DNA of 63,739 bases, the filler included, from Reticulomyxa filosa (lineage: Eukaryota > Protista > Foraminifera), in assembly GCA_000512085.1 (NCBI GenBank). It is 20 parts of 20 records of this genome, joined end to end, with 100 filler letters (N's around TTAATTAATTAA, not from the genome) between each part and the next. Parts side by side here need not be neighbours in the genome. Positions count along the whole stretch, not along the records: positions 19,526 to 24,279 come from ASPP01022915.1; 19 more parts are not named here. One strand, 5' to 3'. The position numbers were made by a program, and so were the translations under genes. Shown here one piece after another: positions 2,963 to 57,715 of the stretch (the stretch's first letter is position 1; each line of letters starts with the position of its first letter). Under the pieces are notes generated by a model. It did not search any database and was not told where the DNA came from. It saw only the letters and a program-made list of their open reading frames with translations.

Positions 2963-3831
2963 TTGTTTAGAGTGTTAAAAGGACATAGCGAAATGGTAAT
3001 TGATGTAAAATTTTCACCAGATGGCCGCAAGGTCGTTTCGTCATCTGCCGATGAAACAGTTCGAATATGGGATGTGATGTCAGGTAAACAAATCAAAATT
3101 TTGAAAGGACATTCTCATTGGGTCAATTGTGTAGAGTTTCACCAGATGGACACACAATTGCTTCCTGCTCAATTGATAGTACAATACGATTATGGGACGT
3201 AATATCAGGAAAAGAAATAATGAAAATTGAAGTAAATTGCAGTACTATGTGGTGTATGACTTTTTCACCTGATGGTAAAACTATTGCATCAGGCTCACGT
3301 TATGACATGATACGAATATGGGATGTAAATTCTGGTAAAGAGATTAAAAAATTGGTAGGTCATTCAAGTGATGTACGGAGTGTACAATTTTCACCAGATG
3401 GTCAAATGCTTGTATCATCATCAGATGACAGAACGATTATTCTATGGAATATGGAAACAGGTGAAATATTAAAACAATTCATAGGACATACTAGTGCTGT
3501 AAGACGTGCAAAATTTTCTCCAAATGGAAAATTCATTGTATCATGTTCATCTGATCACACAATTCGAATATGGGATATTGAGTCAAGAGAACAGCTTATG
3601 GAATTAAATAAACACACCGATGTCGTGAAGGATGCCACATATTTTCCAGATGGCCAAACTATTGTATCTTGTTCTAGAGATTTTAGTATTCGACTATGGG
3701 ATATAAGATCAAAATGCGAAATTCAAAATATTACAGAACTTTCGCATTGGTTACAATGTCTGCATATTTCGCCTGATGGTAATAAAATTGTCTCGGGATC
3801 TTGGGATAATATGATCTATATCTGGGGATGA
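2963..3831 (+). CDS. WD40-repeat protein, 5'-partial, one apparent frameshift
   Basis: Repeated GH...FSPDG...IRIWD units. ORFs 2963-3202 and 3118-3831 join if one T is added in 'gagtttcaccagat' (~3137). Confidence 0.9.
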
Positions 3832-4192
3832 CAAAAGCTCACATAAAATCAGTTTTCTTCAAAATTACAAATGAAAACAAGAGTTTAAGCTGACAACCAT
3901 TATGTTCTGGAGGATTCAATCAGCTCAAGAGTTTTCCTTTTCTTTTCAAATTTATTAGTGTTTTTACAAGCTCTCATTTTAAAGCGTATCCTTCAAAAGT
4001 GGCAAAAAGAAAAATTTTTCTTTTGTTTAACAAAAATTCAATTTATTTCAAATTGTGAGTGTGAAAATTAAGGAAAAAGAATAACATTCAATCTTAGATT
4101 GTCGATTCTTTTTTACAGTAAAGTCTTTTCCACAACGATGGCACAAAAAAAAAAAGGGGGAAACAAAGATTATTTTCCTAATAATCCAAGTA

Positions 4193-5362
4193 ATGACTAC
4201 TGCCATCAATGAAACAGAGAATGTCACACTGCCATCGGTATGACTTTCTCTTCCTTTTTCATTGCATTCGATCAATAAAACAAACGTTTTGTTTTAATGA
4301 ATGGAACAGTTAGAAAAAAGAGTAACTACAGCAATTGAGCATTGGCTTCGATTGTCAAATATAAAATTTGGATGGATCCGTGATTTTGATAAAATTATTA
4401 AACAATATGTTACACTATTTATTGTTTATTATTTAAAAATATAAGTTTCTATTTATCTATAATAATGAATGCTGATTATAGATTCAAATATTTAAATTAT
4501 GGAAAATTTTACAAGAACATAACTGTGAAACGAATAGTATAAAATTTTCACCAGATGGCAAAAAGATTGTTTTGGCACCATTTGATACATTTGTGTATAT
4601 GTGGGATGTTGAGTCAGGAAAATTAATTAAAAAATTCAGAGGGCATTATCATTGGATTTTTGGAGCCGAGTTTTCACCAAATGAGAATATCATTGCGTCA
4701 TGTTCAAAAGATGCAACAGTTCGATTATGGAGTGTGACATTGGGAAATGAATTAGCGTCATGGAATACACATACATCAACAACAGCGGATGTAACATTTT
4801 CTCCCGATGGTAAAAGACTTGTATCATGTTCAAACAGAGTAATGCAAGTTTGGGATGTACACACTAGAACGCAAACCAATTAATACCAGTTGATGCTAAT
4901 GATGTATGGAACATACAATTTTCACCAGATGGACAAATGATTGTATCGGCATCAGATAACAAAACAATTAGTATATGGGATGCATGTTCATGCAAAAGAA
5001 TTAAACAATTAAAAGGACACTCCCATTTTGTACAACGTGCAAGATTTTCTCCAGATGGTCGATTTGTGGTATCCTGTTCACGGGATGCAACTATTCGAAT
5101 ATGGGATATACAATCAGAAAAAGAGTTACAAATATTTCGAGGACATTCAGGTTCTGTGAGAGACGTAAAATATTTTCCAGATGGTCAGGTGATTGTCTCT
5201 TGTTCAAATGATAAAACAATTCGATTGTGGGATGTAAAAACCGGTAATGAAATACAGAGATTAGAAGGACACTCCGATGTGGTGATGAGTGTGGACGTGT
5301 CATCAGATGGTCGTACCATTGTCTCTGGTTCATCTGACAAAACAATTCGAATCTGGAGATGA
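4193..5362 (+). CDS. WD40-repeat protein with N-terminal 33-aa 'GWIxDFDK' module
   Basis: Exons 4193-4237, 4310-4408 and 4482-5362 with GT-AG introns. WD40 repeats follow; one apparent 1-nt deletion near 4877. Confidence 0.85.
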
Positions 5363-11244: not shown

Positions 11245-11519
11245 ATGTTGCAGTAACTAACATTTTAAGATTGTCTCAATTTAAAAAATTCAAAAACCGG
11301 AGAAATGTAAAAAAAAAAAATTGTTTTAAACACTTTTATTGCATGTGACATTTGCAGTCGAGTTCTGATTTTGATTGAATGTCGTCAGTATACATAAGAA
11401 AGACTTTTACTTTCCTCAGTTTGCACAAGATAAGCCACAAATAAATTCAAAGAAAGAAGTTGTTTCCAATATAAGTCAGATTTGTCTGAAAACAGAATAA
11501 AACAATTCAAAGGGGGAGT

Positions 11520-12504
11520 GTGCCATTGACAATGAATAATGAGAAAGTGATCAATCATTTCATATTTTTTTGTTATAACACAGGATTATTAATAAAATAT
11601 GATGAACAAAATAAAATATTTAATTATGAAAAATTACCAATTTGTCATTCTTTGGATGATTTCAATGTGTATTCATTTGTGTATATTTACGATTATATAT
11701 TTTTATTTGGAGGAGCAGATTGTAAATTAGAAAAAACAAATAATGTGTATAAGTATTCAATGAATGACAGAACATGGAACCAATGCAAAATCACATTTCC
11801 AATGGAAATTTCTTCATCATTTGCAATTTTGAGTGATGATACAAATATTCATGTCATTGGTGGATTTAATGCAAAAGGTGAAGAACAAAAAATACATTTA
11901 AGTGTGAATGTAGAACAATTATTTGAAAAATCAGAATTATTGGAAATGCCAGAGATGCATAGAAGAATGATAGAATTAAAAAATGAAATAATGAAAATGA
12001 AATTGGAAAGACCATATATAATTCCAGTTGAAAAGGAAAGAATGAATGAAGATGAAAAAGAGAATAAAGAAGTGATTGATATTCCAGATGAATGGAAAAA
12101 GATGAAAACACTAATTGAAACATTTGAAAAGAAATTGAAAGAATGGAATGAAGAAAAGAAAATGGAACGGAATGAAATGAATTGGGATGATATTTGGAGT
12201 TTTGATGGTGAATTACAACAAATCAAAAAAAGGGTTTTAATTCGAATGGATGACATTCCACCTATTATTAAAACATTACTTTCTGATCAACCATCTATTA
12301 AGGTTTGATTTTATACTGATTTAATTTTGTATTATATAAAATAGAATTTGTTTGAATATGTATAGATTAATATTAAAAATGCATCAAAAGATTTTGAAGA
12401 AATAACTGAAAAACAGAAATTAATACAGCAGGAAATTCATGAAACATCTTTGGAAAAGATAGAATTAAAAAAACAAGTGGATGAAGCAATTTCAAAATAC
12501 ACAA
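11520..12504 (+). CDS. Kelch-like beta-propeller plus coiled-coil protein, fragment
   Basis: YIFLFGG..VYKYS..W and IHVIGG Kelch motifs followed by an E/K-rich helix. No clear 5' end; runs into the contig end. Confidence 0.65.
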
Positions 12505-13461: not shown

Positions 13462-15883
13462 TTATTTACCTTGCAAAAAACCAAAAAAGGTTCGAAATAT
13501 TCCGCCGCGTTGTTTCACAAATAATTTTTGTTCATCTTTCAAGCCTTTTGTATCCTTCCAAATACTGTCTTTCATTAACAAACCACTTTGGATACCAACC
13601 CTCCAAATACATTTCACCAAACTTGTCTCTGTTACATCAATAATTTTACAATTATCACAACTCCATAACCGAATTGTTTTATCCCGTGAATATGACGCCA
13701 ATTTGGAACCATCAGATGACAAGTGAACGCCATCAATATATCCAGTATGTCCTTCCAATACTTGAACTTGTTTTCCTGAAGATGCATTCCATATTCGAAT
13801 AGTTTTGTCTTTTGAATAGGAGATAATTTTAGAACCATCCGATGAAAACTGTGCTCTCGCTACTTCATCGACATGTCCTTCAAACGTATGCACTTGCTTT
13901 TCAGTTAATAAATTCCACAACCGAATTGTTTTATCACCTGGACATGATAAGATTTTAGTACCATCTGGAGAAAATCGTATATTATTTAAATCATTTTTAT
14001 GTCCTTCAAATAATAATCGTTTATTCCCAGATAATACATCCCATAATCGAAGTGTCCTATCACTTGAACATGACACAATTTTAGACCCATCTGATGAAAA
14101 TTGTACTCCTATTACATTATCTGAGTGCCCTTCAAGTACTTGAAGTTGTCCTCCAGATAAAACATCCCATAGTCGAACTGTATAATCACTAGAACAAGAT
14201 ACAACTTTGGATCCATCTGGTGAAAATTGCACATCATTTATATCAGTAGTATGTCCAGTAAATAAGTGGATTTGCTTTCCTGAGGATATATCCCATATTC
14301 GAATGGTTTTGTCATTCGAGCATGATACAAGTTTGGAATTATCAGGTGAAAATTGCACTTTTATCACTCGTTTTGAATGCCCTTCCAATAATTGAAGTTG
14401 TTTTCCTGATAACATATCCCATATTCGAACTGTGCTATCATCTGAATATGATATAATTTTAGAATTTTCTGGTAAAAATAGCACTCCATTTATATGTTTT
14501 AAATGACCTTCAAATATTTGGATCTGCTTTCTTGATTGTACATCCCACAATCGAATTGTATTATCTTTTAAAGATGACATGATTTTAGAACCATCAGGAG
14601 AACATTGCAATCCCGTTATAGCGTCTAGGTATCCTTCCATTAAATGAATCTTTCTTTCTACAGCCACATCCCATATTCGAATAGTCCCGTCCAATGAATA
14701 CGATAAAATTTTAGGTTCCTTTGGCAAAAATTCTACACCATATGCATCTTCTTCTAATAATTGGATTTGCTTTCCTGATGAAGAATCCCATACTCGAATT
14801 GTATTATCAATTGAACTAGATACAATTTTAGAGCCATCAGCTGAAAATCGGGCTTGCTCTATCCAACGTGAATGCCCTTCCAATACGTGAGTTTGTTTTC
14901 CAGAGGAGTGATCCCATAATCGAAGAGTACAATCACTTGAGTATGATAATACCCTCGAGCCATCTGGTGATAATTGAATTCCAAACACCTGACCTTTATG
15001 CCCATCTAATATTTGAATTTGCTGACCCGATAATGCATCCCATATTCGAATAGTTTTATCTTTTGAATACGATATAATCTGTGAGCCATTGGGCATGAAC
15101 AGTACTCCAGTTACTTTATCTGAATGTCCTTCTAATAATAAAAGCTGTTTTCCAGATAGCACATCCCATATTCGTATACTTTTATCTGCCGAACTTGATA
15201 CAATTTTGGAAGAATCTGGCGAAAATTGTGCAGCAAAAATAGTATCAGAATGTCCTTCTAATAATTGCAATTGTCCTCCAGATGATGCATCCAATATTCG
15301 GATAGTCTTTTCACTTGAATATACCACAATTTTAGAACCATCTGGCGAAAATGTTGCTGAAGCAATACCTGATAAATTTCCTCTCAATAGTTTAATTTGT
15401 TGACCTGATAATATATCCCATGTACGAATAGTTTCATCCCATGAACATGATACAATTTTAGAGCCATCATGCGAAAATTGTATTGTTGTTATTCCATCTG
15501 AATGTCCTTTCAATACCTGGAGCTGTTTTCGTAATGATGCATCCCATATTCGAATAGTGTTATCACGTGAATAAGATACTATTTTTGTTCCATCTGGTGA
15601 AAATTTAATTCCATCTACTCTCTTTGAATGTCCTTCCAAATATGCATATTCTCCAAAATAAATATTATTCATTGATGCGTTTGTGAAATTGACATTGCTT
15701 AGGCAAGCTTGACAAAAACGTACATAATCTAAATTGGCATTAGTAAAATTAGTTCCTTCAAGAAATGCACAGTCTAAGATCGCATGAGGAATTTTTATAT
15801 TATTCCAATCTTTGTAATGCATATTTACATTTGCTGAATTGAGTATGGTGATTGCATTTGCTGCTGCAATGTTAACATTGTCA
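13462..15883 (-). CDS. Pentapeptide + 16x WD40 C-terminal region, probably of a NACHT/STAND protein; 5'-partial
   Basis: AAANAITILN, then a pentapeptide segment (AFLEGTNFTNANLD), then 16 similar WD40 repeats. The frame stays open to the contig end; the NTPase domain is not on this contig. Confidence 0.85.
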
Positions 15884-19525: not shown

Positions 19526-19636
19526 TTTTTTTGCCTTATCTTTATTCTTTAGTTTATTAATTTGCTTTTTAAGTTTTTTTTGTTGTTCTGAGACTTTCTT
19601 CAGCCTATCTGCGAGTGATATATTACCCATATACAT
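19526..19636 (-). CDS. N-terminus of a small coiled-coil protein, TraD(Ti)/MobS-like; truncated
   Basis: MYMGNISLADRLKKVSEQQKKLKKQINKLKNKDKAKK runs off the contig edge. Called from composition and context only. Confidence 0.35.
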
Positions 19637-19852
19637 ATATTAAATTGTGTAGTTATATATTACAATAAACACTGATTATTGTAAACAGATATTTTGCAAT
19701 ATTTAATTATATATTAGCTTATTTATCTTTATATTTATTCAAATTAATGCTACTTAAAATGGTTAATATTTATAATAAATATTTTACAGATATTCTTACT
19801 TGGATTTACTTATTATACAATACTATTTATATATTGCTATATAATGGATATA

Positions 19853-20101
19853 TTATTTCGTATAAACTAATTGATATTTCTTACGCATTCTTACTTTATG
19901 AATAATATTAATTATCCTGTTTATTTCCTCTCTAGTATTATAATCACGGATTTTGTAATTTCCCAAGGCAGATATAAGACTACCCCATGTTTGTATTAGA
20001 CTTAAGTCATTAAATAAGTTTCTTTGTACCATTACATGATAAAACTTTGTTTCAGTTTTCCATAAGAAAAAGTTAGGATTGTTATTTAAGTCTATATCCA
20101 T
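19853..20101 (-). CDS. Stand-alone WGR-domain protein
   Basis: 82 aa: KFYHVMVQRNLFNDLSLIQTWGSL...KVRMRKKY fits the WGR pattern Y..Q.DLFG.W.L...WG...R.K.GY. Confidence 0.8.
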   Translation of the reverse strand: MDIDLNNNPNFFLWKTETKFYHVMVQRNLFNDLSLIQTWGSLISALGNYKIRDYNTREEINRIINIIHKVRMRKKYQLVYTK

Positions 20102-20359
20102 ATATCGGTTATAAGTAATGATAATAATTTATAAGGCTTATAATGTATGCTAATTTTATTAAAAATAATATCAATTCTTATTTTAAACACTCCTCGCCTA
20201 ACTCTTATTGTTTTGCTTAAGGGAATGATTATTATGCTTAAGTGAGGCTCAAGGCTGGCTCTTTAAAGTGCGTATTGCAAGTCTTTTAAGCTGTTGTTTT
20301 TATTCAACAACCTCTAAAACTCGCTTTAAATATGTTTTTAAATGCGGTTCTGTTTTTAG

Positions 20360-21240
20360 GCTACACCCCCCAGCCAAACCATTTGACTTTCTTCTAAAAA
20401 GTATTTTAGAATCAATTTAAAGGCATGTCGATCTCTTTAGATACCTTTTTCCTGAGCTAATCTTTTGTTTTTAAGGCATTGCATTTATTTTGCATTTTAA
20501 GAGGGGTTTTACTTTAAGCTACCCCCCTGCGTTAAAATCTCATTTTCTTTTAAAATATACTTTAAAAACTGTTTAACTGTATAGTTGCATTTATTGCGTT
20601 CTTTTAGTGTTTTTAAAAGCTTTTTATCTTTTTGGCTCACCCTAGCCAGCACTTTTGATTTTCTTCTAAAACATAGCCTGGAATTTATCTGAATATAAAA
20701 ACTTCAGACGCCAGTTAGGGCTAAAAGTCTTCTTTGATGAGCTATCTATACAGTTAAAATGTTCTGTATTAAAATATCATGATAAGTCGATTGCGGCAAG
20801 CCGTTAAAAAGTTGTACACCTATAGCAACTAATGTTGCTTTTTAAAAAATCGAGCTCAATAATAGAGACTACCTTTGCTAGCAAAAATGGATTTTCTGTA
20901 TACATTGATTGGGAGCGACTTTTAAAGCATTAATTTAATTATAGGCTTCATTTAGCATATGTATACACGAAATTGGATTTTTGTATACACTTACTGGATG
21001 GGCTTTTAAAACGATTTAATCGTCTATAGCCTGCTTTCTACTTATGTATACATAAAGTCGTGTTTTTGTATACAAAGAGAGATTAAGCTTACTGGATGCC
21101 ATTATACTCCATACTCTACCTATGTATACACGAAATTGAGACATATAAAAACATGCGTTTTTAAAGCTAAATCTTTCCTTAAGCTACCCCCCCTAGCCAA
21201 GCTATTTGACTTTCTTTTAAAACATAGCTTAAAATAAGTT
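20360..21240 (+). repeat. Four dispersed ~55-bp imperfect direct repeats
   Basis: gctAcCCCcc(t)agcca..c.atttgactttctt(c/t)taaaa at 20360, 20518, 20635 and 21183. Confidence 0.75.
20812..21130. repeat. 85-bp-period array with TGTATACA palindromes (iteron/origin-like)
   Basis: TGTATACA at 20897, 20960, 20982, 21045, 21067 and 21123. 20897/20982/21067 and 20960/21045 are exactly 85 bp apart; pairs are 22 bp apart. Confidence 0.8.
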
Positions 21241-21318
21241 GCTTAATCATCTTTTATCTTTGCTTTGACGGATATTCCTTATATCAAGGCTTGTTTTTAA
21301 TACTCTGCATTGGTTACT

Positions 21319-24279
21319 TCACATGCCAAAGTCCATTTCATCTCTCCTGATACTATGCGAAGGAGTTCTTTGCGCTTGCTGAACAGGTGCAGGTTTATGC
21401 AACTCTGCAGTATGAATATCCTTGTCATGTATCTGGCTTTCTTTATTCGCTTTTACAATTTGCTTTTCTTGTGCATTTGTTCCTTTTATTTCATAATCTA
21501 TTTGTATTCCCAGATTATGCGATCCTGCTCTATTGTCTATATACTTATTACTATTGTTCCCAATACTCATCATTGCCTTTAATCTTTCTATTCTTTTTAT
21601 TGGTATATTCACTCCATATTTGCCTTCATATTTTATCACTTCTTTGGCAATCATATTCGCTTTATTATATTCCATACCTTGCTTTTGATATTCCATTGCC
21701 AATTCTTTTAACTTTATCTCCTTATTATTAAACTCCCTCAATACCTTATTTATTTCCTCAGGGATATAAAATACACTATCCTTATTTGCCAGCCTTGAAT
21801 CTATTGCCATTAATCTTTCTAATTTATCTTCTAATACTTCTTTATTCTTTACATCTGCAATACCTGTAATATTTATTTTGCTCTGTAAATGCTTCCTTAA
21901 CTCTTCTTTCCTTAATACTTCATAGCAGACTCTTAATAAATACTCTCTCTTATTTGTATATTGTGCGTCTATTCCCATTCTCTCATAGTAATCCTTTATA
22001 CTCTCTGCTGTCTTTTGACTCACTTCCTTCGTTACTCTATCATCATTTATATTATCTGTTTCTTTAAGTAGTTTATTTATCGTTTTTCCAAAATGCCATT
22101 GTCTAAATTGTCGCTTTTTATATTATCTAACGGAGATAAGTACCTCAGAGAAAACTCCTCTCCTATGGCATTAAGTTGCTTCCCACATAACTGCATTGAT
22201 TGACTTGCTTCTGAATGCTTGTATAACGCATTCAAATCCTTCTCTATTGAATCTAATGCCTTTTCTCTGGCAGACATGCCTATGCCAAGATAATTCAATA
22301 TACTAAATCCTTTTATCTGTCCTAATACTTCCGGATCCTTCTCTACTGTCCTGAGCGCTCCTATCATGCCATCCTTTTGTACAAGCCTGTCCCACTTATG
22401 TTCCGCTGCCTTAGGTGATTCATATGCACTAAAGCATCCATTTATCTTCTCTTGAGATATGGTAGACATATGTAGTTTAATTTCTTTTTGTAGCTTTGTG
22501 GCTTTCTCATTAAAGTTATTTGTATCTGTCTTTAAATCCAATGCTTCTATATATTGATTAATACCTTTAACACCACTTTCCTTTAAGATATCGTTAAAGT
22601 CCTTACCTTGTTCTTTTGGCTTTATTATATCTACTCTTTTAAATCCTTGTTCTCTAAATATTCCTAATGCTTTTTCAATTGCTGACTGAGTCCCAGGATT
22701 ATCTCCATCATTATCCGCAACTATGATTAACTCTTTATCTTTATCTGTAAGTTCGATATTCTTTATATTCGATATACCTAAACTGCATATTACTCTTGCT
22801 GTTGGTTGAGCTTGTGCTATCGATAATGCTGTCTCCAGTCCTTCTGCTATAAATATCCGTGAGGATTTGCTATTGTTTGTTAATTCAACATGAGCTCCTG
22901 TTAATACTCCATAACTTCTCTTTACTATCGATAACTCCTTATTCTTGCCTCCTTCCTTATTAAGATAAATCGTTTGTGTTGCCTTTACCTTACCTGTGTT
23001 ATCTCTTGCCACACTTACTATCCCGGGATAATATTCCCCTGTCTCAGAAGACCTGATATTATCTCGATACCTTATATCCTCAGAAAGCTTTATCTTCTCT
23101 ATATCTATTTGCCTATGCTCTTTTAAATACTTACGCCCCAAGCTCGCCTTGCTATCTCTAATAGCTATAGTCTTATCTGCAAGCCAGCTTACAGCTTTTA
23201 ACTTATCCTGCTCCAATGTCTCCTTAACCTTGACTTCTTCATAACTACCAATACTGATATTGTTCTCTTTATAAGCCTTATATAAGCTTCCTCCTTCTCC
23301 AGATGAAAAATCATGCCATAATCCGCTCTTTAAATTTACTGATATACTTCCTTTATTACCAAATCTCAGTTCCGCATTATTCGATAACTTTTGATTAAGC
23401 TCTCCAAAGACCTTACTTGCTGTTTCTTTTATCAGAGCCACATTCCCCAAAAACTCGTTATAGCGTTCATTTCTGTCAAATACTTTTACTTGCTTTTGAG
23501 GAGTAACAAATTCTTTTCTATTTCCTTCCTTCTCTTTTGTTATAACACCAGCTTTCTGATGCTTGATTGCTGAACTCTTTTCTCCGCTGTGAGTTGCTAA
23601 CCATTTAGAAAGATGACTTATATTATTTGTGATTAACTTCACTCCATGCCTTGCTCTTGATAGCGTTACATAATACGATCTTTGCGTCGAAAGCGATATA
23701 TACTGCTCCCTTGCACGCAAGACCCCTATTACATAATCCGCTGTCTTTCCTTGCGCCGAATACGCCGTGTCACTATAGGCATAATCTATATGCTTTAAAT
23801 CTTTATCTTTTAAATCTGCCTCAACTACCTTGCCGTCACCCATTTCAAGCTTTATCTTATTTTCCAAAATACCTATAACCTTTGCTTCAGATCCATTAAC
23901 TATATAATTCTTTTCTTTATTGTTCCTCGTCCATTTAATCCTTTCTCCTATGCCAAGCTTTATCTTCTCTTCTTCATATATCGATATTCTACCGAAGCTT
24001 TTCTCCGGTATACTCTTTGGATCCCATTCAAAACTTTGTCTATCTCCTTCAAGCTTTAACTTATCGTTACTCACTACTAAAACCTTATAATAATCTCCTC
24101 TTTTTATTCCATTCCTTTCATCATTACTATTAAACCTAATCACATCTCCTTGCTTGTAATTCAAGAGATCTCTCCTCTTTGTATTACTTAACCCCTTTCT
24201 GGCAAGTATACTATGCTCAGTATCTTCTCCCTTTACATAATAGACTTCTTTCGAAACTCATAACTTCAGCTCCCAATTA
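21319..24279 (-). CDS. Conjugative relaxase C-terminal half (TraI/TraA-like): SF1B helicase + Toprim primase + BID-like domain
   Basis: Helicase motifs HIDYAYSDTAYSAQGKT and YVTLSRAR; Toprim motifs FIAEGLETALS, VADND and KDFND. ORFs 22077-24164 and 21319-22023 fuse if one A is added in the A5 run near 22085. 5' end missing. Confidence 0.85.
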
Positions 24280-33590: not shown

Positions 33591-34444
33591 ATGTTTCAAA
33601 CACCAACCACTTTTCCTCCATTACACTCGGTAAGTTCTCAAACACATTTGTGGAAATTACGTTAACTTCCTTAACTAAATGTACTAATATTAAAAAAAAT
33701 AGTTTGAAAAAGAAATAAAATTAATAATTAATAATTGGATTAGAATTTCAGATGTTAAATTAGGATGGATTGATGAATTTGACAAATTTGTTGTCAATTA
33801 TGTTATGTTTATTTTTTATTAAATAAATAATGAGTATATACATATATATATGTATGTACATATATGTATATTCATAATATAGGCAAATACAATCTTTATA
33901 TTTGATACATTTTATTCATCATCTAAATTATTAAATACTTTTAATGGACATATTTCAACTATTTATAGTATTGATTATTCAATATTTAATAATCATCAAT
34001 ATATTTGTTCTGGATCAAGTGATAAAACAATTAGAATATGGTGTATAGATATAAATAAACAAATAAAATTATTAAATAAACATTTACATGAAATATATTG
34101 TATAAAATTTTCAAAATATTATAATAATATTTATGATCGTAATGTTATTTGTTCTTCATCATTTGATAAAACAATTCGTTTTTGGGATATTAAAAAAAAG
34201 AAACAATTTAAAATATTTAATAAATATAATAATGGTGTTTGTGGTATAGAATTTTCATCATTTAATAGTGGTAGATATTTATGTTCTGGATCATATGATA
34301 ATAATATTCATTTATGGGATATAGAAACATCTAAATTATTAAATATATATAATGGACATAAAAATACTGTTTGGTGTATAGATATATCACCATTAAAGAA
34401 TGAAAATAATAATAATAATAATAATATTGGAATTATTGGTGGTA
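33591..34444 (+). CDS. WD40-repeat protein with N-terminal 33-aa module, 3'-partial (absent from the ORF track)
   Basis: Exons 33591-33629, 33703-33801 and 33883-end; FNGH..ICSGSSDKTIRIW, SFDKTIRFWD and SYDNNIHLWD. Confidence 0.85.
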
Positions 34445-52559: not shown

Positions 52560-55500
52560 ATGAGTCTTCTTTTTAAACCAAAAAAAAAAAAGGACAAACA
52601 CTTTGTGATTGAGCCCTGTGGAAGCGACGAAAAGATAGTTTTCAGACCGAACAGCCTAAGCAATGATGGGCGAATGTCAGATCATTTGAAAGAGGCAAAC
52701 TGGCAACAATTGCTGCAAACGACGAAAGACCAGCTGAAATTGACAAAAACATCAACATTTCTTTTTGTGAAGAAAGACAACATGGACGACCAAATCGACA
52801 ACGATGAAGACTTGATGGATGTTTGGAACGAGCTCAACAGAAATAAGAGAGCAGTGTTTTACACTCTAAAAATGGTTGGTATTCATTGAGGGGGAGGGGG
52901 GGGGGAGAGCAAGCATATTTAAAAAAAGTACGTATTCAAAAATATGTGCTTTTTTTTTTTTTGGAAAAAAAAAATGAAAAAATAGCGATGTTTAGCAATA
53001 ACAAAAGAAGACAAACGAATAACATGGTGTCCGAAAAACAGCAATGATCCGAATTTCTGTCATGAATTGGACAAACAGGATTGGAGCAAATTGTGGGAAG
53101 ATTTGAAACGAGAGGCTGGAGTGTCGGACGACTCCGAATTTTTAAAAGAGAGTGAGCATGAACAAACAAAAATACGAAGTGGCGAGGATTTGAAGGCGAT
53201 TTGGACACGTCGATACAGCGACAATGAGACAAGCTGGTTGCAATTGGAGGTGGCTACTTTGAGCACGAACGAAAAGGGGGAGCATTGCAAGCGTGTATGT
53301 GGAACGAACGTGCAAACCAAGGGAGAGCGCTGTTGGAGTCAGGAGCAATACGACGACAAGACAGTAGACAATATCACGTGTGGCGAAGATGAAGAAGAGG
53401 ACAACTCTGCACCTCCCCCTGGGAATGAAGTCAAGCAGCGCAAAGAACAAGATCAAAATTATGATAATGATAATGATGACAATGCTAATGGTAATGATAA
53501 TGGTGCCAATGATGATGATGATGATAATGATGATGATGATGATGAAAAAGAAAGAAATAAAAAATTTACAAAAAAAAGATCAGTGATAACAATAGTAGCA
53601 AAACAGACAGACTCCAAAGTTATGCAAGAAAAGGTGCACTTCAATATCAAGCTAATGTTGGAGTTGGTGCAAAAAGCGGAGGAAGAAGCGAGCCAAATCA
53701 AAGAAAAGAAGGTGATATTGTTCCTCGGGAGCACAGGGACGGGCAAGTCTACATTGATCCATTTCCTGGCGGGATCGACGTTGGAACAGCAAATGGTGGA
53801 TGGCAAGCCTCACATTGCACCGGTGAAGATAAAGAATAAAGCGTTGCTGAATGTGCGAAGCAGCGCCAGCGCAAGATCGGAGACGCGGTATATCACAGCC
53901 GTCCCGGTGGACTTGAAGGAGATGGGCGTATTTGGAGAAAAGGGTGTGATGGTGCTTTGTGACACTCCAGGATTTGAAGACACGAATGGTCCGGAGGTCG
54001 ATGTAGCTAACGGTATCGGAGTCGTGAAGGCACTCCAAACTTGCAAGAGTGTGAAGCCAGTGGTACTGATCAGTTACACAGCATTGGGAAATCGAATGAG
54101 CTGCGTCAAAGACTTGGCACGAACATTAGTCGGAATCATCCCATCCATTCACGATTACCTTTATGCATTCTCCTACATATTCACCAAATTCCCAAACGAG
54201 CACAAGCAGTCCATCCATGGTCTGGCCAAAGATACGTATAATGAAATGGACGACAATGAGGAAGACCAAGGATATAGAGCCATTCTTGCCGACCTCGCCA
54301 AAAAGACCAGAAAAGGAGCCATTGCACCAGATCTGCTAAAAGACTCACCGAGCGAGTTGCTGGAGGATTTTGTAGACTCCAAAACTTTCATCAACGATCC
54401 CAGTGGAGTATTTAAGCCCTTTCTCACGGAAAAGTCCACCGCCGCTGTTCGCTTGCAGGTCGAAAAGCACAAAGCCAATGCTCTGCTCGCATTCAAACAC
54501 CATCATCATCAGGTCGTGAACACAAAGTTGGATGAACTCGTTGGTTTAAATGCCGTGCTGAAGAATGACTACATTGAACGCGAGTACAATGACTGCGTCA
54601 AAAAACTGACGCAGGACTGGAATCAACAAATTGATGGAGCCAGATGCTCCCTTCACAAGTGCATTGTGGCTCCACATGCCATCAGCAAGGAGGATATCTT
54701 GGCATACAAATATGTCGCTGACGAATTCACTGCGGCCGATCCTCTGCGAACGCATTTGAAAGATGCCATCAGCGCCGACTCTTTGGTGCAGCATTTGAAT
54801 GATCAGACCCGTCACTTGGTTGATGCCATTGAAAGCAATATGCAAAATGAAAGTGCTTTAAAGGTGCTTTTGGACAAGTTGGCACTTGTGAGAAATGTCT
54901 TTCCCAACTTTGCTTCTGCTTACAAACATGCTTGTCAAACCTTGGCAAATCGTTTGACCACGTTTGCAAACAATGCAAAAGAATGCATTGAAAAGAATAG
55001 GTTTGACGAAGTGCGCAAAAATTTGGAGGCTGTTGTAAAAGTACTGCCTCTCCAGCCCAATTTGGTGTCCTTATTTGATGTCAAAAAAGAGCTCAAAAGT
55101 TTGGAGGCATTGTTAATGACCCATTTGCATAGTCTGACGAGTAAAGGACTTGCTGTGATCAAAAGAGTAGTAAAGGACGAATATGGCTCCAAAAAAGAAG
55201 AAAAAGAGGCCAACCCTTCTTCTTCTTCTTCTTCTTCTTCTTCTTGTGTTCGAATTGATAAGCTAAGCAAACCTGACATTGAATTGTTGGAAACAAACAT
55301 AATATTGTTAGAAACAGCAACGAATGTGTTTGAATCACCTTGTGAACATTTTAATCTTAACAAAGCAACAAAAGAATTATTCCACTCTTTTTTAAATGAA
55401 ATCATTGTTTATTTCGACAAAATCAGTCAAAAGATAATATCTCTGTTCGAAAAGCACAGATATCACGCATTTGACGAAATGAAAGGGTTTGTGAATGTGA

Positions 55501-57715
55501 TGGACGATCTTCGAAAGATCAAAGTGGTCGAGCAAAGGACACAAAGATCTTATTTCCAAATCATCGAAAGGATATTTGGATTTGTACGTGACGTCCAAAA
55601 AGACGTCGACCTGATGCTCCCTTTGCTAATCAAGCAAGACCCGTCATTTGATTACAGTCGACTGTTTGACTGCATCGTTTGCGTGAATCGATCAAAATGG
55701 ATCGAGGAAAGAGTAGAGGGCGGAAATGGCAATCTGATGGACGCCATTAAGGACAAGTTGATGTTTCACTTGAGTGAATTGCAACAATCGAGTCTGCATT
55801 TGGAATTGGACATTGACCATCCGGAGCACTTGGAGCAAGGAAGCAAGATTGTCAGTCATCTCGAAAAGCTGCATAGTTTGGAGTCGGTCATTCCGGAGAT
55901 TGCAAACTACCGCAAAGGAGTCGCCGTTCAGATTGAGTACGCCGTTCGAGCGACATTGTCCACAATCGAGCACGAGTACTTACTCGAAAAGAAAGATTTG
56001 AGTTATCAAAGAGAAATTAAGGAGCAGTTGTTGAAATTGAAAGTGTATGCCGAAAGCCTTAACCATGCCAATGTATATTTACAACAACAACAACAACAAC
56101 AAAAGGGATTGAGTAGTATGAACAATTACAATGATAACAATGACGATAATGACGATAATGACTACTCCGAAAAGAGCGAAAGGACAGTCGAAGGCAAGAT
56201 ATCAAAGACAAGATATCAAAACAGACAACAAATGGATAAGCTTAAGAAGCAGTCAGAGCAGGTGCAAGAGCAAGAGCAAGAGCAAGAGAAAGTGCAAGGA
56301 CAAGATCATGTGCATGTGCATGTGCAAGACAGAGAAAAAGTGTCGACGGACACAGCCTCGAAAGTATTGAAAAGCCAAGGACTTTTGGAAGGCGAGATGC
56401 TGCGCTTAACAAGCAACGAAAGCGAGCTCAACGAGACTATCAAGAGATACGAACAAGAGATGGACAAGACAAAGAGCAGCTGCGGATACAATAGCTTTGG
56501 CGTGTTGAACGCAGTGAGGACGGAAAAGGTGTTGTTGTACTTGAGGGCATGCAAGGCAGCTGCATTTCCCTCTACGGACACAGCATTGGCAAACATTCGA
56601 GGAGGAGGAGGAGGAGGAGGAGGAAGTGACGAAGATCAAAAGCAGATCGAAGCAACAGCAACAGCAACAGCAACAACAACAACAGCAATAACAACAACAA
56701 CAACAACAACATTAATAACAGCAACAACAGCAGTAATGACATTGAGACAAGCATTTGCAACGACACAACACTTGGTGGAGAAGTACTTGCAAAGCTACGG
56801 TGCACATGTGCAAGGTCAGCTGCGATCATTGGACTACACGGAGACGGCGACGATGTCGAAGACAGACACAGGAGAGCTGATGGAGAGAGTGGACGTGGTA
56901 ATGAGCAGACTGAGCGAGTTATCCAAGCTGGAACAGAGCCATCGAATGATCTTTGAGTACTTACCGCAAGACATGGTGAAGCAGTTGATTTGCAAGCTGG
57001 AAAAGAGTTGGCTGAATTTATCCGACGAAATGATGAAATTAGCGAAGCAAACAAATCTGCAAGCTTTGAAAAGCAAGATCGTAGTGACCAAAGCGTTGAG
57101 CGTGCTCGACGACTATACCAAGCCCAATTGCAAGTTCCGAGATCTATTTTCAAAGTATCAGGAGATTCTGTTCAATGACGTGATCGACACCACCAAAGTG
57201 CTGAAAGCGATCGAAGGTCATCAGTTCACCGAAGTCGCCGCGGAGATATCCAAACTGAACCAGCGCAAGGATGGAGACGGACAGGTGGAGAAGGTGTTGG
57301 AGGAAGTGAAAGACTCGCTATCGCGATCACTTAAGGCCCTGGCCAAAAGCACCATGATGAAAGTGGTCATGCTGGGAGATAACGAAGTGGACTTGAAGAG
57401 CGCCATTAAACTGGAGGAGCAACTGCAATGGATCGAAGATGCAAAGAGCTTTGTGTTCGAACACGTGGACAAAAAGACACAACGCGACATTGAAAAGATT
57501 GAACACGAGACCAATGCACTTATCGAAAAGTGGATGTTCAAAGTGCTCAGCACCGTCAAAGCAGCCATCAACTCGTGCAATTTTTGGGAAGCGGAAGAGA
57601 AGATCAAGCTTGTCCGAAAGTTTATTCGTATTTTTGGAAACCGCTTTGGTCAGCTTTCCTTTGACGATAACGATAATAATAATAACAATAATAATAATAA
57701 TAATAATAATAATAA
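52560..57715 (+). CDS. Giant TRAFAC-class (AIG1/GIMAP-like) P-loop GTPase with long helical C-terminus, 3'-partial
   Basis: G1 GSTGTGKST (53727), G2-like SETRY, G3 DTPG (53961), G4-like FTKF (~54180). More than 1,150 aa of helical sequence follows. A probable first exon starts at 52560. Confidence 0.8.

Follow-up and report, generated by a model that had tools for sequence, protein, structure and literature searches.

How does a contig with the look of a bacterial transfer region come to stand in the genome assembly of a foraminiferan, Reticulomyxa filosa, and to which organism does it belong? The contig in question spans positions 19526-24279 (4,754 bp) of a stretch of 63,739 nucleotides, hereafter the window, in which 20 contigs are joined by a fixed linker. 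A first-pass annotation, made from the sequence alone, had taken it for a plasmid or integrative conjugative element of an intracellular Rickettsiales symbiont, of the type of the Rickettsiales amplified genetic element (RAGE) with TraA(Ti) and TraD(Ti) proteins. In our reading, which we consider highly probable, the contig is bacterial DNA with the 3′ part of a traI gene, a nic-like motif and a gene for a WGR-domain protein (Table 1). It is likely the DNA-processing end of a conjugative element of F type, plasmid or integrated, which belongs to a Midichloriaceae symbiont co-assembled with its foraminiferan host. The attribution to a Rickettsiales symbiont is supported by the TraI tree, the plasmid matches of the WGR gene and the distribution of the nic-like motif, while the element type had to be revised, from RAGE to a family of Midichloriaceae.

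Table 1. Features of the contig, in window coordinates
Feature	Position	Strand	Basis
N-terminal stub, 37 aa, cut by contig edge	19526-19636	-	Shuffle-tested likeness to 83-aa open reading frame of L084
Stand-alone WGR-domain gene, 82 aa; motif reads WGS	19853-20101	-	PF05406, E 0.0048
Degenerate ~54-bp repeat family (D1), four copies: 20368, 20524, 20640, 21191	20368-21244	.	Flanks nic-like site on both sides
Second short inverted repeat CGGC-TT-GCCG, 3′ of predicted nick	20794-20803	-	Perfect 4-5-bp repeat at same place in 10/13 sites
oriT/nic-like core, with inverted repeat GCAAC-ATTA-GTTGC at 20838-20825 followed by TATAG-GTGT; nick predicted at 20816/20815	20813-20840	-	R388 nic register; 12 related sites
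Six GTATAC-core palindromic boxes, ~85-bp period, 5′ of nic-like site	20896-21131	.	6/8 of the contig's GTATAC
C-terminal tail of TraI (234-aa open reading frame 21319-22023)	21319-22086	-	Relatives continuous across the break
3′ part of TraI-type relaxase/helicase/primase gene, 5′-truncated by contig edge	22077-24245	-	Pfam, NCBIfam, alignment to relatives
A5 run, traI frame switch	22083-22087	-	Relatives align in frame -2 before, frame -1 from 22086
Toprim (Toprim_3) of TraI	22572-22856	-	Pfam, 60.6 bits vs cut-off 27.2
DUF7146 of TraI	22884-23150	-	Pfam, 42 bits vs cut-off 27
Helicase C-terminus of TraI	about 23634-23783	-	Weak Pfam match
Last 34 nt of contig; noisy TraI end or junction	24246-24279	-	tblastn alignments of relatives start at 24230-24245

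Composition set the contig apart from its neighbours in the window. With 14 related bacterial loci and the other window contigs as its two training sets, a Markov classifier called this contig bacterial-like and the 19 others host-like (19/19), at three orders; the composition of the contig grouped with the 14 related loci. All nine 500-nt bins from 19526 to 24025, where binning stops and leaves the last 250 nt without a separate bin, were bacterial-like, non-coding bins included, although the scores of coding bins are inflated because the training loci include traI homologues. The GC content is 32.4%, and the contig has no microsatellite, as had been noted earlier; taken alone this is weak evidence, since 4 of the 20 contigs have none. 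Among 27 open reading frames (ORFs) scanned on the other contigs we found eukaryotic WD40, Kelch, C2H2, SBDS and Hobbit domains, and a Kelch-like ORF at 11490-12305 had 41 of 41 matches labelled Reticulomyxa filosa; the background contigs are therefore foraminiferan. A tblastx comparison of these contigs with the related loci gave no match. We agree with the earlier remark that contig edges at both ends keep integration from being judged, yet nothing host-like appeared in the bins from 19526 to 24025.

The larger part of the contig is occupied by traI. Its long frame (22080-24257, minus strand) matches positions 1438-1910, the last quarter, of the TraI model TIGR02760, and its helicase C-terminal motifs match F TraI models and structures 5n8o and 9f0x. 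In an alignment all ten relatives run continuously through a 234-aa ORF beyond it. The 695-aa and 234-aa ORFs belong to one traI, whose reading frame breaks at an A5 run, a point missed in the first pass, and the contig holds the 3′ ~60% of that gene, with a single frame break and 0 internal stops in 2.9 kb. We prefer, with moderate confidence, to see the switch as a homopolymer sequencing error; decay of traI is possible because the traI genes of L002 and L006 are broken too. The tail encoded beyond the switch was found by tblastn in 7 of 160 loci, each time within a TraI of the close clade, and had no match among 72,556 plasmids.

The relaxase type was read from longer relatives. In a search that kept the best 120 of 129 relatives, the ten closest longer ones among the matches listed (1,294-1,820 aa) were 34-41% identical over 89-99% of the query (E 1e-106 to 1e-138), and the next one was 28% identical (E 7.5e-61). 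Nine of these ten carry the TrwC (MOBF) relaxase domain, the tenth being short at its N-terminus, and none (0/10) carries MobA/MobL (PF03389); TrwC was also scored in the TraI of L001. A search for proteins of near length returned 17 matches, namely the public model P0177, four at 40-43% identity, and the rest at 38% or less over shorter spans. P0177, recorded on a contig of 4,754 bp, is this traI fragment labelled as a 'MobA/MobL family protein' of the host with two introns. Its intron 1 removes 26 in-frame codons that are kept in all relatives and its intron 2 bridges the frame switch; both look like gene-finder artefacts, so that label and gene model are both likely wrong.

At the other end of the gene, the last 34 nt of the contig gave a weak in-register TraI score. 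The end codons LGAEVMSF resemble a Tlc ATP/ADP translocase motif of three family genomes (L223-L225), and also lie in the TraI register. We do not accept a junction with a Tlc translocase gene at 24246-24279: the match was noticed post hoc, chance alone would yield about one of this kind, and its score is circular, because the search pattern located the motif in just 4 of 30 Tlc loci. An insertion sequence end within the last 35 nt likewise found no support.

Which bacteria carry such a gene? A genome scan with the TraI protein of the window alone returned no relatives, while an alignment query succeeded. From the scan of GTDB with this alignment the best 80 of 127 relatives were kept, and the best four of these were Ca. 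Anadelfobacter sociabilis (twice), the Midichloriaceae 'Vederia' genome and a Midichloriaceae metagenome-assembled genome. To place the primase module (ORF residues 275-575), a first tree was built from 71 rows, namely loci that had at least 200 aligned residues, after removal of duplicates and with only 4 of the 80 metagenome loci included, and 21 of the 120 proteins; a careful tree used 38 of the 71 rows, with group labels set after the first tree. In the 38-row tree the window TraI falls into a clade of 13 rows with support 100/100, comprising four named rows, all Midichloriaceae, one genome of the family set (G178), the window, and seven rows without a taxon. Five MobA/MobL proteins, four of them labelled Rickettsiaceae or Megaira, form a separate clade (100/98) and cover just ~40% of the query in the alignment. 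The RAGE, TraA(Ti)/TraD(Ti) type proposed earlier was thus not upheld. Of 400 scored Rickettsiales genomes 15 match TraI at E 1e-30, the four best being members of Midichloriaceae, and in a search over 5,000 plasmid records the best matches were Piscirickettsia and Legionella at 28-34% identity. TrwC itself is present in 32 of 401 Rickettsiales genomes and 11 of 47 family genomes, which rules out MOBF as unique to Midichloriaceae; what appears bound to the family, as far as these sequences indicate, is the TraI clade and the motif described below.

The owner is likely a Midichloriaceae symbiont of the kind already published with the host species (PMC10847448), and the symbiont itself is therefore not news. 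That genome is given as 1,305,893 bp in 242 contigs with plasmid status '?', plasmids being listed for one other Midichloriaceae, and the main text describes no conjugative element (0 matches for 'conjugat'). The homology check proposed in the first-pass annotation came out in favour of its symbiont, with TraI in a 100/100 clade whose named members are Midichloriaceae and the plasmid matches of WGR all Rickettsia; best matches to free-living bacteria, the outcome it had raised against itself, did not occur among the named matches.

Downstream of traI lies a non-coding gap of 1.2 kb that holds repeats and a conserved motif, CAACnnTAGTTGCnnnAGGTGTAC, at 20814-20837 on the minus strand, traced from a stray tblastx match and overlooked in the first-pass annotation. 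Even with two mismatches allowed, the motif occurs in 5 of 160 loci (1.87 Mb), and in all five it shares its strand with a close-clade traI and stands downstream of that gene; a pattern made from these five finds the window site with one mismatch, as 0 of 100 shuffles do. The screen outside Rickettsiales was made through the 160 loci. Six of 401 Rickettsiales genomes match at two mismatches or fewer: four of them, all family members, hold nine sites at 0-1 mismatch, and two have two mismatches, equal to the two matches of the reversed control. In the Midichloriaceae set, 5 of 47 genomes hold ten sites (reversed control, 0), and the matches in G002, G178, G139 and G405 are independent of pattern building. 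The motif also follows traI in L184, L189 and L200, and the sequences of L002 and L003 end too early to show it. L200 (57-1991, in G405) encodes a TraI without the Toprim module, yet the same motif and a WGR gene follow, so that the primase part may be dispensable.

Comparison with a characterised MOBF origin suggests what the motif is. In the R388 nic oligo, GCGCACCGAAAGGTGCGTATTGTCT/ATAG, positions 22-25 read GTGT, as in most MOBF plasmids, and the inverted repeat's proximal arm, GTGT and two bases beyond are the parts that TrwC needs (PMC4176350). The window site, AAGCAACATTAGTTGCTATAGGTGT/ACA, has its stem at 3-7 and 12-16, a four-base loop and GTGT at 22-25, as in R388, and the invariant columns in 13 sites include the proximal arm, GTGT and the two bases after it. 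The origin parts described for pCU1 are a hairpin, TAG and a pentanucleotide (PMC2943615). We regard the motif as the likely origin of transfer (oriT) of a plasmid or integrated element, as predicted from this register. Its placement is unusual. The traI genes of the window, L001, L081-L084, L184, L189 and L200 read towards the motif, while by far most MOBF relaxase genes are oriented away from oriT (PMC3737333) and oriT mostly lies upstream of the relaxase gene, new ones having been sought in upstream regions only (bioRxiv 10.1101/2024.01.30.577996). The sections of PMC4853378, PMC3264647 and PMC3158045 drawn on here add no sequence evidence.

Repeats surround the motif. The GTATAC boxes stand 66-292 nt 5′ of it and are likely, on the predicted relaxosome layout, binding sites of an accessory protein; similar arrays occur at 4 of 12 related sites, and the other eight have none or 1-2 copies. 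The second inverted repeat shows paired changes in some of the ten sites that have it, and the 54-bp family has no plasmid match above chance. The non-coding region gave no Rfam or tRNA-like match and plasmid matches at chance level, its predicted promoters and terminators were at shuffle level (13 vs 10.1 and 1 vs 1.0), and viral contigs contained no exact copy of the motif.

Beyond the gap, the WGR ORF scores 17.4 bits, below the Pfam cut-off of 22; 5 of 5 aligned positional relatives match the WGR domain, the eight matches of the ORF among 72,556 plasmids are all Rickettsia, and with this backing the gene seen in the first pass can be taken as real. On these Rickettsia plasmids the WGR gene follows traD(Ti) at a distance of a few hundred bases and neighbours a MOBQ relaxase gene, and in L083, L084 and L200 it lies downstream of traI. 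WGR domains bind DNA breaks, as in PARPs, and a role of the protein at the nick would be a guess by analogy. The traD-like gene reported earlier was not confirmed: what lies at the edge is a 37-aa stub with no Pfam TraD match and, over the 37 aa available, no signal against Rickettsia TraD(Ti) (841-1395 of 2000 shuffles reach the score). The stub scores above 2000 of 2000 shuffles against an 83-aa ORF of L084 and weakly against an L083 ORF (174 of 2000 shuffles reach the score). In the Atlas the L084 protein came out as 'mobilization protein'/MobC-like at 0.90, a lead only, and a cluster in which 23% of members bear TraD came at rank 30; judged by this likeness, the stub may be the start of a MobC/MobS-like mobilization protein. 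In L083 and L084 the stub-like ORF precedes WGR, whereas in the window the stub follows it.

The relatives indicate what surrounds such a region. L001 has the order traF-traH-traG-traD (coupling protein)-NikA-like gene-traI, L084 has the same order from traH onward, and G003 adds TraU, TrbC and TraN, with TraF also present. Past traI, L084 continues with the 83-aa ORF, WGR, HU, ProQ/FinO and an integrase. The contig itself has no replication or partition genes. L083 carries DnaA-like and ParB genes, which mark replication on Rickettsia plasmids (PMC1800911), and P0002, P0180 and P0181 lie on contigs of 1.3-1.46 Mb, which makes a plasmid less than certain; therefore plasmid and integrated forms are both plausible, with a slight leaning on our part to the plasmid and the chromosome-integrated form almost level with it.

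Several further observations weigh against the reading of the contig as the transfer region of a Midichloriaceae element. Its nearest relatives are just 40-44% identical to the window TraI, seven of the 13 clade rows bear no taxon name, mobile elements change hosts, and the identity of the owner with the published R. filosa symbiont is a candidate only. No housekeeping gene or rRNA was found on the contig, and no relaxase domain, the gene being cut ~670-750 residues into the full-length relatives; of the relaxase-helicase-Toprim gene described in the first pass, the helicase C-terminus and Toprim stand and the relaxase part is absent from this edge-cut copy. As to the motif, L006 lacks it in roughly 1.9 kb downstream, and two copies in G002 and one in G001:C155 are not beside traI. 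Positions G17/T18, conserved in most MOBF nic sites (PMC4176350), read T/A in the window, and G/T in L001 and L189. Covariation is uninformative because the stem is invariant across sites, and six motif regions, folded as DNA, gave energies no better than those of shuffles (z -1.25 to 0.41).

If not a Midichloriaceae symbiont, the owner could be a different bacterium of the culture, be it food, a contaminant or a second symbiont, which has the element family too or acquired it. Conjugative elements cross taxa, the unnamed clade rows leave room for such a host, and distant relatives occur in Piscirickettsia, Legionella and Berkiella-like bacteria; those relatives, however, show 28-34% identity and, where tested, fall outside the clade, while all named clade members are Midichloriaceae, the motif is confined to the family among the 401 sampled Rickettsiales genomes, and WGR independently points to Rickettsiales, and we regard this origin as improbable. 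Insertion into the foraminiferan nuclear genome by horizontal transfer, with the frame switch as decay or an intron, would fit a contig that lies in the host assembly, ends in edges on both sides with 34 nt unexplained, and bears a gene model given to the host with two introns. We consider it very unlikely, given nine of nine bacterial-like bins, a gene with one frame break and no internal stop, a perfect non-coding motif, and introns that look like artefacts. There is still less to be said for a RAGE-type element or a plasmid of Rickettsia type in which a TraA(Ti) with MobA/MobL (MOBQ) domain is joined by TraD(Ti), which we hold to be barely tenable: Rickettsia TraA(Ti) has the same helicase and Toprim C-terminus (PMC4564193), WGR lies near the relaxase gene on Rickettsia plasmids, and a domain swap is conceivable where the TraI N-terminus is missing, yet the MobA/MobL proteins sit in their own clade and align over a fraction of the query, the TrwC clade alone is accompanied by the TraI tail and nic-like motif, the motif is absent from the two Rickettsia plasmid regions, and TraD(Ti) is not matched by the stub.

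A separate doubt concerns the motif, which might be some other cis element (for recombination, partition or regulation), with the true oriT in its usual place ahead of the tra genes. The usual upstream position of oriT (bioRxiv 10.1101/2024.01.30.577996; PMC3737333) and the several copies away from traI, near toxin-antitoxin genes, would suit this. On the other side, the invariant columns are exactly the parts that TrwC needs, the spacing equals that of R388, and the polarity places traI in the lagging region as expected; in addition, a dif-type site was rejected because the bases where the dif consensus would require its XerD arm vary freely, and the Rfam and tRNA-like searches were negative. 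Thus we think another function unlikely, although it keeps more weight than the alternatives for the contig as a whole, and we retain the motif as the predicted oriT.

A mechanism can be proposed on the observed domains of the contig, the clade, the conserved motif and the gene order of the relatives, with the steps themselves borrowed from R388 and F. The NikA-like ribbon-helix-helix protein would bind the GTATAC boxes, and the TrwC domain of TraI, encoded off the contig, would bind the GCAAC/GTTGC repeat and nick after GTGT at 20816/20815. The TraI helicase would then unwind the minus strand, which the coupling protein and an F-type type IV secretion system would export 5′ end first. With export in this direction from the predicted nick, WGR and the small mobilization gene would enter the recipient first and traI last; relaxase genes are usually transferred last. 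Finally, the Toprim module would prime the complementary strand, a role that is likewise only proposed for the primase module of R. bellii TraA(Ti) (PMC4564193). We further lean, by a little, towards a broader proposal: Midichloriaceae may own an F-type element family apart from RAGE, in which a TrwC-helicase-primase TraI reads into its own R388-like origin and then WGR, the 24-bp motif may define an oriT family of protist-dwelling Rickettsiales missed by upstream-only searches, and orphan copies may let toxin-antitoxin and effector-like islands move in trans between symbionts sharing a protist cell.

Some neighbouring sequences were noted along the way. The predicted leading region of L084 (17056-21260) holds HU, ProQ/FinO and integrase genes, a Tn3 fragment and a fragment of a group II intron maturase. 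Small contigs of G002 (L195-L199) carry many copies of a paired ~150-aa gene with a neighbouring variable protease-like gene, including one Ulp1/RickCE-like match, amid toxin-antitoxin pairs and ParA fragments; on two of the contigs the oriT-like motif is present and traI is not. In L201 (4348-9705; G001:C155), the gene of a 1,786-aa haemagglutinin-repeat protein with a CdiA-type RNase C-terminus precedes an oriT-like motif and a WGR gene by ~1.5 kb. Elsewhere in the window, a host-like contig has a 1,576-codon stop-free frame with no Pfam match (52986-57713, plus strand), and long WD40-repeat ORFs, an expanded host family, lie on three contigs at 13465-15882 (minus), 3088-5359 (plus) and 33883-34443 (plus), one of them uninterrupted over 806 aa.

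Gene content has served to infer gene exchange among obligate intracellular symbionts of protists, and oriT regions beside mobA are reported on plasmids of an amoeba symbiont (PMC5751055). The motif offers such symbionts a concrete, testable nic-site candidate for conjugation. In the open literature, with subscription papers uncovered, we found no sequence-defined origin for Midichloriaceae and no published description of the motif as an oriT family, of its reversed placement or of the element. An origin downstream of the relaxase gene would be missed by pipelines that scan upstream regions, and P0177, a bacterial gene public as a host protein with invented introns, is a trap for surveys of horizontal transfer. 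WGR genes neighbour the origin on MOBQ Rickettsia plasmids as well as in these MOBF elements, a lead on the function of stand-alone WGR proteins. What is added to the known symbiont is the MOBF assignment and the family-bound, reversed oriT candidate.

Among known systems, the closest are the TraI loci of Ca. Anadelfobacter sociabilis (L001, L003) and 'Vederia' (L002), at 39-41% identity, and lake metagenome contigs L081-L084, at 35-37%, all with the same helicase-DUF7146-Toprim-tail layout and, in L001 and L081-L084, the same nic-like motif downstream of traI. The window copy differs in its truncation by the contig edge, its frame switch and its distance from traI to motif, 481 nt against 165-330 in most relatives and 1,895 in L081. 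The published R. filosa symbiont (PMC10847448) shares the bacterial family and the host species indicated for the contig. RAGE and Rickettsia plasmids (PMC10732058, PMC4564193, PMC1800911) share the F-type tra genes seen in the relatives, an intracellular Rickettsiales host, the C-terminal Toprim primase module of the relaxase and a WGR gene close to transfer genes; in contrast, the nickase of the relatives is TrwC (MOBF) and not MobA/MobL, the clade is separate, TraD(Ti) is lacking, and traI follows traD(F) in operon direction, whereas in RAGE it is divergent from traD(Ti). The RAGE relaxosome is described as a MobA-type TraA(Ti) together with TraD(Ti), and the same source suggests that there may be several types of relaxosome (PMC10732058). 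With the MOBF proteins R388 TrwC, pCU1/pKM101 TraI and F TraI (PMC4176350, PMC2943615) the system shares the relaxase-helicase fusion, the inverted repeat at 3-16 with GTGT at 22-25, and a ribbon-helix-helix accessory gene and coupling protein before the relaxase. It departs from them in its primase module and long tail, in not keeping G17/T18 in the window, and, compared with most MOBF elements, in an origin that lies 3′ of traI, with traI reading towards it.

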